A stretch of 61,676 bases of DNA from Smithella sp. (GTDB lineage: Bacteria > Desulfobacterota > Syntrophia > Syntrophales > Smithellaceae), in the NCBI GenBank assembly GCA_035382085.1, contig DAOSZO010000005.1, forward strand, positions 1 to 61,676, in the 5' to 3' direction. Each line of letters starts with the position of its first letter. The stretch's first letter is position 1. The notes under the pieces were generated by a model. It worked only from the letters and a program-made list of their open reading frames with translations, ran no database searches and was not told the origin of the DNA. Position numbers and translations under genes: made by a program. Shown here piece by piece: positions 22,726-29,055 of this stretch.

Positions 22726-23577
22726 ATGCAACAAGACTGCAGACGTACCGCGAGGGGGACCCTGTATCTCCGGGCCGTACATCAGCTGCTGGACGCGCGG
22801 CCGCTGATCCTGGATGATGCGCCCGCCGTCGCGTTGCTTGGGGAAGAACAGGCCCGGGAGATTCGGAAAAACCATAAACATCACCGGATGCCGGCGGCGC
22901 GGGCTTTGCGGGCGCACGTCGTCCTACGGTCGCGCTACGCGGAGGATCGCCTGGCCGAAGCGGTCGCGCGGGGAGCCTCCCAATACATTATTCTCGGCGC
23001 GGGGTTTGACACATTTGCCTTCCGCCAGCCGGCCTGGGCCGGTCGAATAAAAATCTTCGAAATCGATCATCCGGCGACGCAGGTCAGGAAGATTTCCAAG
23101 CTGAAGGATGCCGGAATGACCCTCCCGCCCAATCTTTTCTTCGGCGGGATGGATTTTGAACGGGAATCACTGCGGGATGGACTTATGCGCCATGGTGTCT
23201 CTCGGCAGGCGGTATCGTTTTTTTCCTGGCTGGGCGTCACTCCGTATCTCAGGGAGGAGGCGATAGATGCCGTCCTGCGCACGGTTGCGGAATTCCCATC
23301 GCAAAGCGAGATGGTTTTGACGTTTTCCCAGCCGCCGGATCGGCTTGCCGAAAAAGAAAAACAACGGCATTCGACGCTGTCCCGGATCGTGGAGGGGGCC
23401 GGCGAGCCCTTTGTCAGTTTCTACGCGCCGGAGGCGATGGAACAAAAATTACTAGGCGTCGGATTTAAGAAAATCGCGTGGCTCTCCGGCGAAGAGGCCC
23501 AAAACCGGTGTTTTCGGAACCGTCCCGCAGATCTTTATCTTTCAAATCGCTCTGTCATCGTATCCGCCATGCTTTAA
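22726..23577 (+). CDS. Class I SAM-dependent methyltransferase (LCM/Rv0726c-like)
   Basis: RTARGT, RSRYAED, QYIILGAGFDT, FEIDHP and WLGVTPYL motifs. Confidence 0.88.
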   Translation: MQQDCRRTARGTLYLRAVHQLLDARPLILDDAPAVALLGEEQAREIRKNHKHHRMPAARALRAHVVLRSRYAEDRLAEAVARGASQYIILGAGFDTFAFRQPAWAGRIKIFEIDHPATQVRKISKLKDAGMTLPPNLFFGGMDFERESLRDGLMRHGVSRQAVSFFSWLGVTPYLREEAIDAVLRTVAEFPSQSEMVLTFSQPPDRLAEKEKQRHSTLSRIVEGAGEPFVSFYAPEAMEQKLLGVGFKKIAWLSGEEAQNRCFRNRPADLYLSNRSVIVSAML

Positions 23578-23612
23578 AAAATGACGAGGGGAAAGTCCGG
23601 ACAAAAAGAGTA

Positions 23613-23641
23613 TTGACAAAAAATACGTTTTTCGTTATGCA
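23613..23641 (+). promoter_or_regulatory. sigma70-type promoter for the ilv leader/operon
   Basis: TTGACA (23613-23618), 17-nt spacer, TATGCA (23636-23641); about 30 nt upstream of the leader ATG. Confidence 0.55.
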
Positions 23642-23671
23642 AAAAACAAATTGTGGGTGAAATGGGGTTTT

Positions 23672-23767
23672 ATGTTTCTTAAAGATTTAACCGGCGGCAT
23701 CATCAGACTGCAAGAGCTGATCCTCGTAGTAGTCGTACTTACGGGGTCTGCCGCTTTGTATCTTTAG
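23672..23767 (+). CDS. ilvL: ilv operon leader peptide (31 aa, below the ORF-track cutoff)
   Basis: Reads MFLKDLTGGIIRLQELILVVVVLTGSAALYL*, with eight consecutive Leu/Ile/Val codons (23717-23740). It lies directly upstream of terminator hairpins and ilvB. Confidence 0.88.
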   Translation: MFLKDLTGGIIRLQELILVVVVLTGSAALYL

Positions 23768-23864
23768 GAAATAAAAACAAAAGATACAAGCCGCAGGCCC
23801 CTGAAGCCTGCGGCTTTGTTTTTGAAACAAGGCCGCTGATTCTCGGAGAGACAGGCGGCTTTTT
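23743..23864 (+). promoter_or_regulatory. Transcription attenuator: antiterminator plus two tandem terminators
   Basis: Antiterminator: 23743-23765 pairs with 23780-23801. Terminator 1: AAGCCGCAGGC-ccctgaa-GCCTGCGGCTT (23788-23816) followed by TGTTTTT. Terminator 2: 23831-23860 followed by TTTT. Confidence 0.85.
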
Positions 23865-23911
23865 AGTTTTTAGAAGTTGAAAATTGAAAATATTCCGGAG
23901 GGGAGAGAAGG

Positions 23912-25615
23912 ATGCAACTCAAAGGCACGCAAATCCTGCTGAAGGTTTTGGAGGAAGAGCATGTGGAGATGATTTTCGGGTATCCCGGCGGGGCGGTGCT
24001 CGATATTTATGATGAGCTTTTCAAAAGCAATATGAAACATATTCTGGTTCGGCATGAGCAAGGCGCGGTGCACGCCGCCGACGGTTACGCCCGCGCGACC
24101 GGCAAAGTGGGCGTTTGCCTGGTGACTTCGGGGCCCGGCGCCACCAACACCGTCACAGGGATCGCCACGGCCAACATGGATTCCATCCCTTTGGTGGTTT
24201 TCACCGGGCAGGTGCCGACGGGACTGATCGGCAACGACGCTTTTCAGGAATGCGACATCACGGGCATTACACGGCCCTGCACCAAGCATAACTTTCTGGT
24301 GCGCAATATAGAAGATCTGGCTCCGACCATCAAGGAGGCCTTTCACATCGCCCGCTCGGGCAGGCCGGGACCGGTTTTGGTTGATTTGCCCAAGAACGTG
24401 ATGGCGGCGACGACGGAGTACGATCCCGCCGGTATCCGGATTCGTAATCACGAAAAATCCTACAAGCCTTCTCCGAAAAAGATAGCCGCTTTCCTGGAAA
24501 TGTTGAAAAATGCCAAACAGCCTCTGATCATGACGGGCGGGGGCGTCCTTCTCGGGAAAGCTTCCGCGCAGTTGACGGAATTCGCCCGGAAATATCGGAT
24601 TCCCGTAACCGGAACATTGATGGGGCTGGGGTCTTTTCCGGGGAGCGATCCGCTCTGGCTGGGGATGCTGGGCATGCACGGCACGTATTACGCGAATATG
24701 GCCGTCAGCCACTGCGACCTGCTGTTTGCCGTCGGCGTGCGGTTTGATGACCGGGTGACCGGCAATATTGAGACATTTGCCGCCAACGCGAAAATCGTTC
24801 AGGTGGATATCGATCCTTCGTCCATCAACCGGAACGTCGCGGTGGATTTGCCGATCCTCGGCGATACCAAAGCCGTGTTGAACGATATTCTGAAATATTT
24901 TGAAGAGCATCATTACGCCTGCCCGGAGGAAGAACGAAATCAGTGGCTCGGGCAGATCGCCGAATGGAGACAGGCCGTTCCGCTTCAATATTGCCAGAAC
25001 GGCCAGGTCATCAAGCCCCAGTTTGTCATCGAAACGCTTTATAAACTGACACGGGGCGATGCGATTATCACGACGGAAGTGGGGCAGAACCAGATGTGGA
25101 CGGCGCAGTTTTTCCACTTCGACAACCCCAACACCTTTGTTTCCTCCGGCGGGCTTGGAACGATGGGTTATGGTTTGCCCGCCGCCATCGGCGTCAAGTG
25201 CGCCTTTCCGGACAAGCACGTCGTGGACATCGCCGGAGACGGAAGCATTCAGATGAACATTCAAGAACTGGCCACGGCGGCGCAATACAACATCAACGTT
25301 AAAATCGTTCTGCTGAACAACGGCTATTTGGGAATGGTGCGCCAGTGGCAGGAGCTGTTCTACGAGAAGCGCTACTCCTACACCGACATGACCTACGCGC
25401 CGGACTTCGTCAAGCTGGCCGAAGCCTTCGGCATTGTCGGGCTGCGCGCCACGAAACCGGAGGAAGTCGAACCCACGCTCAAGCAGGGCCTGTCTCTGGA
25501 GAGGCCGGTTTTGATGGATTTCCGGGTGTCGCGGGAGGAATGCGTCTATCCGATGGTTCATCCGGGCGATTCCATCAGCAACATGGCGCTGGGCAGCCGG
25601 GAAATGATTAATTAA
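23912..25615 (+). CDS. ilvB: Acetolactate synthase large subunit
   Basis: FGYPGG, RHEQ, TSGPGATN, GMHG, RFDDRVT, GDGS...NN and MVRQWQ motifs. Confidence 0.97.
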   Translation: MQLKGTQILLKVLEEEHVEMIFGYPGGAVLDIYDELFKSNMKHILVRHEQGAVHAADGYARATGKVGVCLVTSGPGATNTVTGIATANMDSIPLVVFTGQVPTGLIGNDAFQECDITGITRPCTKHNFLVRNIEDLAPTIKEAFHIARSGRPGPVLVDLPKNVMAATTEYDPAGIRIRNHEKSYKPSPKKIAAFLEMLKNAKQPLIMTGGGVLLGKASAQLTEFARKYRIPVTGTLMGLGSFPGSDPLWLGMLGMHGTYYANMAVSHCDLLFAVGVRFDDRVTGNIETFAANAKIVQVDIDPSSINRNVAVDLPILGDTKAVLNDILKYFEEHHYACPEEERNQWLGQIAEWRQAVPLQYCQNGQVIKPQFVIETLYKLTRGDAIITTEVGQNQMWTAQFFHFDNPNTFVSSGGLGTMGYGLPAAIGVKCAFPDKHVVDIAGDGSIQMNIQELATAAQYNINVKIVLLNNGYLGMVRQWQELFYEKRYSYTDMTYAPDFVKLAEAFGIVGLRATKPEEVEPTLKQGLSLERPVLMDFRVSREECVYPMVHPGDSISNMALGSREMIN

Positions 25616-25635
25616 AGAGGTTTGAAAAAATAAAA

Positions 25636-26136
25636 ATGGCGAGGGAGAAAATGGAAAAAAAGGAACACATCATTTCGATTCTGGTTTACAACAAGCCGGA
25701 CGTGCTGGCGAGAATCGCCGGCACGCTGGGCGGAAAGGGCTACAACATTGAGAGCCTTTGCGTGAATTCAACGACCCAGTACGATATTTCCAAGATCGTC
25801 ATGACCACGGTGGGCACGCAGGAAATCATTACGCGCATCGAGAACCAGCTCCGAAGACTGGTGGATGTCATTGAAGTCGACGATTTGACCAACGTGGAAT
25901 CGATTCACCGCGAGATGATGCTCGTCCGTCTGAATCTGACGCCTGAAAAAAAAGAGCAGATCAAGAAAGCGGTTGACACCAATAAATGGAAGGTAATAAT
26001 ATCCGCCGACAGCTATTTGATTTTGGAAATCACCGGCGACAAATCCCAGATTGATTTTGCGCTGGCGCGCCTGGAGCCGCTGGGGATCGCCGATATCACG
26101 AGAACGGGTCTGGTGGCTCTGAATTTGGAGAGTTAA
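25636..26136 (+). CDS. ilvN: Acetolactate synthase small (regulatory) subunit
   Basis: ACT domain (NKPDVLARI...GYNIESL) plus C-terminal domain ending RTGLVAL; follows ilvB. Alternative start 25651. Confidence 0.9.
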   Translation: MAREKMEKKEHIISILVYNKPDVLARIAGTLGGKGYNIESLCVNSTTQYDISKIVMTTVGTQEIITRIENQLRRLVDVIEVDDLTNVESIHREMMLVRLNLTPEKKEQIKKAVDTNKWKVIISADSYLILEITGDKSQIDFALARLEPLGIADITRTGLVALNLES

Positions 26137-26180
26137 TGCCATTTTAATAAAGTGTTTAAATTATATTTTGGGGGGATTTT

Positions 26181-27239
26181 ATGGCAAAGATTAATTTCGG
26201 TGGTGTAATCGAAGATGTTGTGACGAGCAAAGAATTTCCGTTGAAGAAAGCTCAGAAAGTTTTGAAAGATGAAATCGTGGCGGTTATCGGTTACGGGGTG
26301 CAGGGTCCGGCTCAAGCGATGAACATGAAGGACAACGGCATCAACGTTATTGTCGGCCAGGCCAAAGAAGATGTGCGGTATTGGAAAAAGGCCGTGGCGG
26401 ACGGCTGGAAACCCGGCAAAACGCTGTTTCCGATTGAAGAGGCGGTCAAACGCGGCACCATCATTCAGTATCTCGTTTCCGATGCTGCGCAGAAACTTCT
26501 CTGGCCCCAAGTCAAGGCCAATTTGAAAAAAGGCGACGCGCTTTATTTCTCGCATGGTTTTTCCATCGTTTATAAAAAACAAACTGGCGTCATTCCGCCG
26601 AAATTCGTCGATGTGATCATGGTGGCTCCCAAGGGGTCGGGAACCAGCGTGCGCCGGAACTTCCTCGACGGCAGCGGCATCAATTCCAGCTTTGCTGTCT
26701 ATCAGGATTACACGGGCCGCGCTATGGAAAGAACCTTGGCACTGGGCATCGCCATCGGGTCGGGATTTTTGTTCCCGACGACGTTTGAAAAGGAGGTTTA
26801 CAGCGACTTGACCGGCGAACGCGGCGTGCTCATGGGCGCGCTGGCGGGGATCATGGAGGCCCAGTACAATGAACTGCGAAAGCACGGACACACGCCCAGC
26901 GAAGCCTTTAATGAAACCGTGGAGGAGCTCACGCAGAGCCTGATTCGCCTGGTGGCGGAAAACGGCATGGACTGGATGTACGCCAACTGCAGCGCGACCG
27001 CCCAGCGCGGGGCGCTGGATTGGCGTCACAAATTCCGCAAAGCCGTGGAACCGGTGTTCGCCAAACTCTATAAATCCGTTGCGACCGGCAAAGAAACAGC
27101 CATCGTGCTGAAAGCCAATAGCGCTCCCGATTACCGAGAAAAATTGGAGGCCGAACTCAAGGAAATGCGCGAATCCGAAATGTGGAAGGCGGGAGCCGCC
27201 GTGCGCGAATTGAGACCGGAGCGGCGCAAGAAGAAATAG
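26181..27239 (+). CDS. ilvC: Ketol-acid reductoisomerase
   Basis: IGYGVQG, SHGF, VAPKG and SDLTGERGVLMG motifs. The N-terminus (INFGGVIEDVVT...EFP) resembles the Bacteroidetes/fungal Ilv5-like type. Confidence 0.96.
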   Translation: MAKINFGGVIEDVVTSKEFPLKKAQKVLKDEIVAVIGYGVQGPAQAMNMKDNGINVIVGQAKEDVRYWKKAVADGWKPGKTLFPIEEAVKRGTIIQYLVSDAAQKLLWPQVKANLKKGDALYFSHGFSIVYKKQTGVIPPKFVDVIMVAPKGSGTSVRRNFLDGSGINSSFAVYQDYTGRAMERTLALGIAIGSGFLFPTTFEKEVYSDLTGERGVLMGALAGIMEAQYNELRKHGHTPSEAFNETVEELTQSLIRLVAENGMDWMYANCSATAQRGALDWRHKFRKAVEPVFAKLYKSVATGKETAIVLKANSAPDYREKLEAELKEMRESEMWKAGAAVRELRPERRKKK

Positions 27240-27261
27240 CGGATTGGCAAGAAACTCCGTT

Positions 27262-27350
27262 TTGCCCCCTCTCACCTGATGAGAGGGGGCAAGGGGGAAG
27301 GTGATAACAATAAAACCTTCCCCGTAATTTCTCCCGCAAGAGGCGGGAGA
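27262..27350. repeat. Composite REP-like palindromic element (three hairpins) between ilvC and ilvD
   Basis: TTGCCCCCTCTCA/TGAGAGGGGGCAA (13 bp), GGGGAAGGT/ACCTTCCCC (9 bp) and TCTCCCGC/GCGGGAGA (8 bp). Confidence 0.75.
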
Positions 27351-27393
27351 GGTTTCTATTACTGACTGATTCCAATTAAAGGGAGAGAGAACG

Positions 27394-29055
27394 ATGAGAA
27401 GCGATCTTATGAAAAAAGGTGTCGAGCGGGCGCCGCATCGCTCGCTGTTCAAGGCGATGGGCTACACGGACGAGGAAATCGCCCGGCCGTTGATCGGCGT
27501 GGTCAATTCGGCCAATGAAATCATTCCCGGACACATCCATCTGGATTTAATCACGCAGGATGTGAAGGCGGGCATCCGGATGGCCGGAGGAACGCCGGTG
27601 GAATTTCCGGTTATCGGCGTCTGCGACGGCATTGCGATGGGACATGAAGGCATGAAATTTTCATTGGCCAGCCGTGAGCTGATCGCCGATTCCATCGAGA
27701 TCATGGCCATGGCCCATCCGTTTGACGCTCTGGTTTTCATCCCCAATTGCGACAAGATTATTCCCGGCATGCTCATGGCCGCCCTGCGACTGAACATTCC
27801 ATCCATTTTCATCAGCGGCGGTCCGATGCTGGCGGGGAAGATTCAGGACAGAACCATTGATCTGATCAGCGTTTTTGAGGGCGTCGGCGCCGTCAAAGCG
27901 AAAAAAATAAGCGTGGCGCAGCTCAAGGAGCTGGAAGACCGAGCCTGTCCGGGATGCGGTTCGTGCTCCGGTATGTACACCGCCAATTCCATGAACTGCG
28001 TCACCGAAGCGCTGGGGCTGGGTCTGCCCGGCAACGGAACCATTCCCGCCGTACAGGCGGCGCGCCGCCGTCTGGCCAAGCGCGCCGGAATGAAAATCAT
28101 GGAGCTGCTTAAAAAGAACATCCGGCCTCGCGATATCTGCACGCTAGCCGCCTTTAAAAACGCCATCGCCGTGGATATGGCGCTGGGTTGCTCAACCAAC
28201 ACGGTTCTGCACATCCCCGCCATCGCCCACGAAGCGGGCATCCAACTGGATCTGGATCTCTTCAATACCATCAGCGAGAAAACACCCAATCTCTGCAAAT
28301 TGAGTCCCGCCGGACACCATCACATCGAGGACCTGGACGCCGCGGGCGGCATTCAGGCTGTGATGAAAATCATCAGCAAAATCGGGGTCATTGATGAAAA
28401 GGTCATCACCGTATCCGGCAAAACAGTCGGCGGGAATTTGAAAGACGTACGGGTCTTGAACCCGGAAGTCATCCGGCCGCTGAACAACCCTTATCTGAAA
28501 CAGGGCGGCATCGCGATTTTGCGCGGCAATCTCGCGCCGGACGGCGCCGTGGTCAAACAGTCCGCCGTCGCTCCGGCCATGCAGAAAAACGAAGGGCGGG
28601 CGCGCGTGTTTGATTCTGAAGACGACGCCATCAAGGCAATTCTCGGCGGCAAAATCAAAGACGGCGACATTGTGGTCATCCGCTATGAAGGTCCCAAGGG
28701 CGGCCCCGGCATGAGGGAGATGCTTTCTCCCACGTCGGCCATTGTCGGCATGGGTCTGGACAAAACCGTCGCGCTTTTGACGGACGGCCGATTCAGCGGC
28801 GGCACGCAGGGCGCGGCCATCGGGCATATTTCACCGGAAGCCGCGGAAGGCGGTCCCATCGCGCTGGTCAAGGAAGGCGACATCATCTCCATTGACATTC
28901 CGGCCAAGAAACTGAATTTGAAAGTCAGCGACGAGGAACTGGCGAAACGCAGAAAAGCTCTGAAGCCTTTCCAACCGAGAATCACCAGTGGTTATCTGGC
29001 CCGGTATGCGAAGATGGTGACATCCGCTTCAACGGGGGCCGTGTTCAAGGATTAA
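27394..29055 (+). CDS. ilvD: Dihydroxy-acid dehydratase
   Basis: [40 protein letters not shown] and TDGRFSG motifs. Confidence 0.97.

Follow-up and report, generated by a model that had tools for sequence, protein, structure and literature searches.

Two serial terminators in the leader of the ilvBNCD operon of Smithella and other Syntrophales: a candidate relay under the control of one leader peptide

The leader of the ilvBNCD operon

The ilvBNCD operon of Smithella sp. is encoded on a 61,676 nucleotide (nt) stretch of DNA (assembly GCA_035382085.1, contig DAOSZO010000005.1), which is called the window in the following. This paper deals with the leader of that operon, which lies in the interval 23578-23911 between a gene for an S-adenosylmethionine-dependent methyltransferase (22726-23577) and ilvB. 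Both genes are encoded on the plus strand, as are all features of the window mentioned below. The leader is very probably an ilv leader-peptide attenuator. Models of its folding and its conservation furthermore incline us to the view that it is a ribosome-mediated attenuator of the full relay type, in which a chain of six segments comprises two serial intrinsic terminators. The operon that would be regulated in this way spans 23912-29055 and contains, according to NCBIfam matches, the genes ilvB (23912-25615; TIGR00118, 1e-251), ilvN (25636-26136; NF008864, 3.5e-44), ilvC (26181-27239; TIGR00465, 8.5e-95), and ilvD (27394-29055; NF002068, 3e-258).

The original prediction for this region, which was made from the sequence alone, had pointed out an open reading frame (ORF) of 31 amino acids with the motif LILVVVVL at 23717-23740. 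Translation of 23672-23767 confirms this ORF, which starts with an ATG at 23672, comprises 31 codons and ends with a TAG at 23765-23767 (translation MFLKDLTGGIIRLQELILVVVVLTGSAALYL). It is preceded by a Shine-Dalgarno (SD)-like TGGGG (23663-23667). Fifteen of its codons specify Ile, Leu or Val, including four Val codons in a row, and the regulatory codons are Ile10, Ile11, Leu13, Leu16, Ile17, Leu18, Val19-22, and Leu23 (23699-23740).

A promoter-like region can be read from the sequence at 23614-23642, where TTGACA (23614-23619) is followed after a spacer of 17 nt by TATGCA (23637-23642). A consensus promoter scan did not call this pair. The TTGACA and a TAT-rich box 17 nt downstream of it are kept in about 35 leaders of the same genus, and transcription presumably starts at this region. 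The ribosome binding site GGAGGGGAG of ilvB is located at 23897-23905. In many Smithella genomes (loci L002, L004, L011, L012, L018, L020, L022, L025, and L030-L033) insertions of 100-250 nt, which consist of repeated palindromic elements of the types GAGACTCAACTTTCAGAAGCG...ACTGAAAGTTG... and GAATTATCCCCGAAGCG...GTGGGATC, are found between the second terminator and the start of ilvB. Such insertions are never found between the two terminators, and the window contains none.

Segments and alternative helices

The RNA of the leader can be divided into six segments which pair with their neighbors in alternative ways. Segment 1 (23673-23699) covers the region of the leader start codon and represents the 5' strand of a long 1:2 hairpin; in the minimum free energy (MFE) fold of 23672-23875 it pairs approximately with 23749-23773. 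This hairpin, which is not part of the original prediction, is the dominant structure of the leader in its untranslated form. Segment 2 (23743-23773), which contains the end of the leader ORF with its stop codon, can pair either with segment 1 by means of 23749-23773 or with segment 3 (23780-23801) by means of 23743-23765. In the latter case GGGGTCTGCCGCTTTGTATCTTT (23743-23765) and AAAGATACAAGCCGCAGGCCCC (23780-23801) form a helix of 21 base pairs (bp) with two bulges and a duplex energy of -32.0 kcal/mol, the first antiterminator. Segment 3 is alternatively the partner of segment 4 (23806-23821) in the first terminator (T1 or 3:4; 23788-23824), whose 11-bp stem (23788-23816) is followed by a U-rich tract, TGTTTTTG or, in another delimitation, UGUUUUUG. 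T1 has an energy of -22.9 kcal/mol and was called by the consensus scan.

Segment 4 consists of the 3' arm and the U-tract of T1, and its core GCGGCTTT is 99% conserved. Its alternative partner is segment 5. The resulting 4:5 hairpin (23810-23836; -17.5 kcal/mol), the second antiterminator, has a loop of only 3 nt and 12 bp, one of them a G-U pair, which are formed by GCGGCTTTGTTT (23810-23821) and AAACAAGGCCGC (23825-23836). Segment 5 can finally pair with segment 6 in the second terminator (T2 or 5:6; 23829-23872; -16.9 kcal/mol). T2 comprises a 9-bp stem (23829-23837/23854-23862) with an inner helix of 4 bp, and it is followed by TTTTTAGTTTTT or, in another delimitation, UUUUUAGUUUUU. The helices 1:2, 2:3, 3:4, 4:5, and 5:6 thus form a complete chain of five as in a his-type relay, and segments 3 and 4 have partners on both sides in the alignment described below. 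All pairings of the original prediction, which were 2:3, 3:4, 4:5, and 5:6, were found at the positions given for them.

The 1:2 hairpin also buries the SD-like TGGGG and the ATG of the leader ORF itself (23663-23700). Translation of the leader must therefore probably begin before segment 2 is transcribed, and transcripts which remain untranslated would probably default to double termination.

The fold of the whole leader with 1:2, T1 and T2 has an energy of -84.9 kcal/mol in comparison to -54.2 +/- 4.5 kcal/mol for 200 dinucleotide shuffles (z = -6.9), and none of the 200 shuffles folds equally well. The 196 hairpins of the window that are followed by a T-run were compared as partners of segment 4. 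The best of these candidates is the 5' flank of T2 (-18.8), and the next unrelated one reaches -14.2. Hairpins of the type GCCGC...GCGGCTT occur within the window only at this leader, which indicates that the stem common to T1 and T2 is not a general terminator consensus of this genome.

Ribosome position and the choice between the folds

Folding was modelled at two decision points, namely with the RNA out to 23816, when the polymerase is on the U-tract of T1, and with the RNA out to 23859, when it is on the U-tract of T2. In the main model of the ribosome position the RNA is taken to be inaccessible as far as the leading edge of the ribosome. As the polymerase has not yet released the U-tract of T2 at the second decision point, the contest there is between the full 4:5 hairpin and a T2 that lacks its A:U extension.

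With one of the codons from Leu13 to Val21 in the ribosomal A-site, the pairing probability (P) is 0.92-1.0 for 2:3 and at most 0.06 for T1, followed by 0.89-1.0 for 4:5 and at most 0.11 for T2. Positions from Thr24 to the stop codon give the opposite result, with P(T1) of 0.98-1.0, P(T2) of 0.97-1.0, and P(4:5) of at most 0.02. The upper, decisive part of 2:3 has a P of 0 at these positions, and the lower part pairs until Ala27. Val22 and Leu23 give intermediate values. In the absence of a ribosome 1:2, T1 and T2 are formed, with P(1:2) = 1.0, and the MFE fold of the RNA from segment 2 onward is 2:3 together with 4:5 (-57.6 kcal/mol). Blocking the upstream part accordingly switches the RNA between T1 plus T2 and 2:3 plus 4:5. 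The two states that had been proposed, 3:4 with 5:6 and 2:3 with 4:5, are hence both obtained in the thermodynamic models, depending on the site of the stall.

The same contest was modelled for 74 orthologous leaders. In the median, 4:5 has an energy of -13.9 kcal/mol and T2 minus its U-tract one of -12.2 kcal/mol. If segment 3 is sequestered, 4:5 beats T2 in 61 of the 74 orthologues, and if segment 3 is free, T1 and T2 are both formed in 69 of them. The length of the 4:5 loop is flexible and ranges from 7 to 26 nt over the order. Two leaders of one genus (L076 and L077) contain about 12 additional A-rich nt in that loop; their P(4:5) is still 0.86-0.88.

Conservation in the Syntrophales

In a DNA search 35 genomes of the same genus turned out to carry the leader with about 80% identity, and weaker matches were obtained in other families. 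A covariance model (R1) was built from 37 leaders and was given the terminated structure, T1 plus T2, only. As model and alignment were fitted to these two hairpins alone, the tests of 4:5 are independent of that fitting. With E <= 0.01 R1 matches 316 of 339 Syntrophales genomes, which represent 63 of 72 genera, and 194 of the 204 high-quality genomes; the matches listed were all of full model length.

In many genomes, the window included, R1 gives a second match, which was rejected as a second leader because it is the reverse strand of the palindromic T1. A genuine second full-length leader, which is rich in Val and has both terminators, is found in a genome of another family (G060; L110, 451-599, minus strand; C1:830686-830834). 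An ORF about 200 nt downstream of it is similar to the N-terminus of a pyruvate/2-oxoacid:ferredoxin oxidoreductase, and this may be a second gene controlled by branched-chain amino acids.

The helices were compared one by one in an alignment of 87 sequences (A3). The leader ORF was recovered in most of these 87 Syntrophales leaders, and the peptides are rich in Val, Ile and Leu throughout. For about six of the leaders the automatic frame picker failed, with no ORF found in one and another frame chosen in four or five. A typical orthologous ORF begins with an ATG and the residues MFLK..., is preceded by SD-like purines, has its Val/Ile/Leu run in the last third followed by (T/R/K)G(S/T)AA, and stops 13 or 22 nt past the GGGG of segment 2.

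The T1 helix is paired to 93.9% in the alignment, with four pairs altered on both sides, and the T2 helix to 95.7%. For the 2:3 helix 81% pairing and seven pairs altered on both sides were found. Column 97 of segment 3 covaries with its partner in segment 2 as well as with its partner in segment 4, as a genuine alternative pairing would lead one to expect.

The 4:5 helix is 91% paired, and its first 8 pairs are present in about 100% of the 87 sequences. At pair 130/167 81 sequences have U-A, and the remaining six, which constitute one clade (Syntrophus sp. loci), have C-G. In this clade a corresponding U-to-C change is found at column 214 of segment 6, and G89 of segment 3 acquires a G-C pair. 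The concerted changes in segments 4, 5, and 6 are one event each in the tree. In 35 other sequences T1 would profit from an exchange of U130 for C, by which one of its G-U pairs would be improved; the exchange never occurs without the changes in segments 5 and 6. For column 165, which is position nine of segment 5, pairing with segment 4 is seen in 69 of 81 sequences (39 U-A, 16 G-C, 13 wobble pairs and one A-U), compared to only 49 of 81 for pairing with segment 6.

The octamers of segments 4, 5, and 6 (GCGGCUUU / AAAGCCGC / GCGGCUUU) are 97-99% conserved. The outer 8 bp of T2 are invariant, in contrast to its interior, which is about 60% conserved and exists in 78 distinct versions among the 87 sequences. 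Such a contrast would be expected if segment 5 has to fit both segment 4 and segment 6. The constraint continues backward, as segment 4 depends on segment 3, segment 3 in its turn on segment 2, and the latter on the codons of the leader. Throughout the order the orthologous leaders have thus retained the peptide, the two terminators and the complementarity of 4:5, and one clade carries a concerted change of segments 4, 5, and 6. Both computational checks suggested with the original prediction, the folding and the comparison of orthologues, hence speak for it.

Proposed mechanism

If charged Ile-, Leu- and Val-transfer RNAs (tRNAs) are plentiful, the ribosome would reach the stop codon of the leader and cover segment 2, so that 3:4 (T1) could form. 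A polymerase that escapes T1 would meet 5:6 (T2), which would form because segment 4 is locked in T1. An untranslated leader would lead to the same double stop, in this case because 1:2 forms. A stall within the Ile/Leu/Val run, however, would hold segment 1 off segment 2 and permit 2:3. Segment 4, left free by 2:3, would then capture segment 5, i.e. the A-tract and the 5' arm of T2, as soon as it is made. With 4:5 in place T2 would be blocked and the polymerase would enter ilvB.

In the repressed state the leak would be about (1 - e1)(1 - e2), with e1 and e2 standing for the efficiencies at which T1 and T2 terminate, and in the induced state both terminators would be pre-empted by 2:3 and 4:5. 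Joint relief of both terminators by one stalled ribosome is what the model predicts. That termination actually takes place at T1 and T2, that it depends on branched-chain amino acids, and that 4:5 relieves T2 in vivo, is our inference. The likely benefit would be a multiplicative repression by which induced expression is not lowered.

Alternative explanations

Several observations weigh against the relay and have to be considered together with its most serious competitor. In this alternative the leader is a classical ilv attenuator of four segments (1:2, 2:3, 3:4), behind which T2 acts as an independent and unregulated back-up terminator that scales expression down. T2 may then stem from a tandem duplication of T1 and 4:5 would be a by-product, as any terminator with A-tract, GC-stem and U-tract would pair with another one of that kind in front of it. 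T1 and T2 indeed have GCCGC/GCGGC and the A- and U-tracts in common, from which 4:5 follows automatically, and tandem terminators with complementarity of the 4:5 type are also found at plain 3' ends of genes (e.g. L165 and L167).

The models are not unanimous either. In 13 of the 74 orthologues P(4:5) does not exceed 0.5 although segment 3 is sequestered. T2 is predicted to win in about nine of them (e.g. L074, L075, and L013 in the equilibrium model), and in four more neither fold reaches 0.5. After the full U-tract has emerged 4:5 and T2 are approximately isoenergetic, so that the relay must act kinetically. If the block is restricted to the 27-nt footprint of the ribosome, a stall at Val19-Leu23 allows the lower part of 1:2 to close again around the ribosome, and T1 and T2 are then both formed; the antiterminated result therefore hinges on the RNA behind the stalled ribosome being unavailable.

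The comparative support for 4:5 is in addition mostly conservation and not independent covariation. Nearly all of 4:5 is invariant, which leaves little room for true covariation, and its sole clear compensatory change arose just once in evolution. For the ninth pair of 4:5 a sign test that takes the phylogeny into account was underpowered, with only two supported independent pairs (p ~1), and we claim no statistically secured covariation for 4:5.

On the other hand, a strong constitutive terminator between the attenuator and the operon would cap the induced expression. The outer 8 bp of T2 are identical to the 3' arm of T1 over 24 families while the interior of T2 turns over, although an independent hairpin could drift by compensatory change, and where the outer stem of T2 did change, in a single instance, segment 4 shows the identical change. 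At the U-tract of T2, moreover, the median 4:5 is the more stable structure, as stated above. Taken together we regard an independent back-up terminator as possible but rather unlikely.

It is improbable that 4:5 or 5:6 serves another purpose, be it in the stabilization or processing of the transcript, as 3' hairpin of a leader-derived small RNA (sRNA) or as 5' hairpin of the processed ilv messenger RNA, or that T2 answers to a second signal in trans such as a protein or an sRNA. Attenuator-derived sRNAs with functions in trans are known (rnTrpL, PMC6614838), and the very high conservation of segments 4 to 6 could also mean a binding site. The conserved letters are, however, exactly those required by the three alternative helices, and the layout recurs behind unrelated leaders that have only the pairing logic in common (see below). 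An Rfam scan of 23000-24500 with E values up to 10 returned noise only, with neither a T-box nor a riboswitch. Its best match to a leader was Thr_leader, whose 15.9 bits (E = 6.8) fall far short of the gathering score of 55, and the rest was microRNA noise. A second ORF or an aptamer was likewise not found in the leader.

Finally, the ORF might encode a functional small hydrophobic membrane peptide that has its own double terminator and is not a sensor, the ilvBNCD promoter being located downstream; although the peptide is hydrophobic and well conserved in sequence within the genus (MFLKD..., LTGSAALYL), this is most improbable, since the nucleotide conservation of its C-terminal codons is due to their role in segment 2, the peptide varies freely across families outside the Val/Ile/Leu run, no promoter-like site is seen between T2 and ilvB in the window, and the N-terminus of ilvB follows downstream in 36 of 40 fetched loci (tblastn), the other four being cut by contig ends or weak matches to non-leaders.

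Comparison with known attenuators

The known leaders of ilvL-ilvGMEDA, ivbL-ilvBN, and leuL in enterobacteria and of ilvBNC in Corynebacterium glutamicum resemble the Smithella leader in several respects. They contain a short ORF rich in Ile, Leu and Val between the promoter and the first gene, and they use mutually exclusive protector, antiterminator and terminator hairpins together with an intrinsic terminator. The ilv leaders of the textbooks are single-terminator designs. The Smithella leader differs from them in its two serial terminators and in the linking helix 4:5, and no relationship to the known ilv leaders was found by sequence or in Rfam. The C. glutamicum ilvBNC leader is a three-hairpin attenuator (PMC11857589).

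The domino logic itself has a counterpart in the his leader. For Salmonella and E. coli a model of six segments, with A:B, C:D, and E:F opposed to B:C and D:E, was reportedly put forward by Johnston et al. in 1980. In both leaders a stall opens the first hairpin and the change is relayed over five alternative helices. In the his leader, however, E:F is the sole terminator and C:D is without a U-tract, whereas the middle hairpin 3:4 of the Smithella leader is itself a terminator, so that one stall would govern two stop signals.

Two terminators in one leader are not without precedent either. The ermK leader of Bacillus licheniformis contains two adjacent rho-independent terminators, according to a remark in PMC4335068, which cites Kwak et al. 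1991. As far as that remark goes, ermK is similar in its control by a leader peptide and ribosome stalling and in the adjacency of its two terminators. It differs in that the stall is induced by a drug and not by a shortage of charged tRNA, in that a resistance gene is controlled, and in its far longer leader; there is no sequence similarity. Tandem attenuators and riboswitches also place two terminators into one 5' leader and thereby achieve multiplicative control, but they have one sensor per terminator, whereas the Smithella leader has a single leader peptide and T2 would be slaved to T1 via their common sequence.

The claim that such a relay is unlike the textbook attenuators is therefore not entirely correct. 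A relay over six segments is familiar from the his leader, and two terminators in a leader are familiar from ermK. A relay with two terminators in an amino-acid attenuator was, however, not found in our literature search, in which the ermK remark in PMC4335068 was the sole precedent. The search did not reveal a study of attenuation in Syntrophus or Smithella.

Wider occurrence and significance

A pattern scan with GCGGCTYT...ARRGCCGC...GCGGYTYTTT also matched leaders outside the ilv family of the Syntrophales. About 30 of the 80 loci obtained were rejected as leaders, as they are tandem terminators at 3' ends, tRNA flanks or coding sequence. Four leaders precede genes other than ilv. In an Acidobacteria metagenome-assembled genome (MAG; L147, 4017-4150, minus strand) the leader MMSEIRKNGGQFYFWFYFYFN with the motif FYFWFYFYF is located before a gene for DAHP synthase (aroF). 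A Melioribacter MAG (L162, 2674-2822, minus strand) contains the leader MKFEKRNNVNVTWWWWNNFIPLS with WWWW before a TrpB-like gene. Two further leaders are found before leuA, namely the Leu-rich MKRTKEIMACRLALLLGLGEVVSAGL in the MAG of an 'uncultured bacterium' (L171, 2034-2187, minus strand) and MKTNTARIAVVGSLALAGLPGGRSTAA, which is not rich in Leu, in a Deltaproteobacteria MAG (L169, 1573-1625, plus strand). The stretch from segment 4 to T2 folds as 4:5 in all four, and at least two of them come from other phyla. As the search pattern itself forces the 4:5 complementarity, these findings indicate the recurrence of the design and not its frequency.

In two genomes of Lederbergia (Bacillaceae; L146, 1897-2064, and L207, 2196-2351, both plus strand) three tandem and nearly identical hairpins of the type GCCGCAGG...CCTGCGGCTTTTT follow a short ORF without obvious amino-acid bias.

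We see an even chance that interlocked double-terminator attenuators represent a general and so far undescribed design class, in which one stall disarms two serial terminators. Its basis would be that the 3' arm and U-tract of T1 are exactly complementary to the A-tract and the 5' arm of T2. The class would be fixed at ilvBNCD in the Syntrophales and would recur, perhaps independently, for aromatic, tryptophan and leucine genes.

Should T2 be a plain back-up terminator, the leader described here is an ordinary ilv leader that had previously not been annotated. If the proposed relay works, one sensing event would be multiplied via serial terminators and a second sensor would be unneeded; the repression ratio would be expected to be squared at no cost to the induced expression. 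The relay would then be a compact route to very tight off-states, which could be reused in synthetic attenuators. The covariance model and the simple rule of GCGGCUUU...AAAGCCGC...GCGGCUUU after an amino-acid-rich mini-ORF can be used to find further leaders of this kind. For the Syntrophales themselves the leader provides a first regulatory model of branched-chain amino acid synthesis, in an order of slow-growing, energy-limited syntrophs for which leaky expression would be costly.

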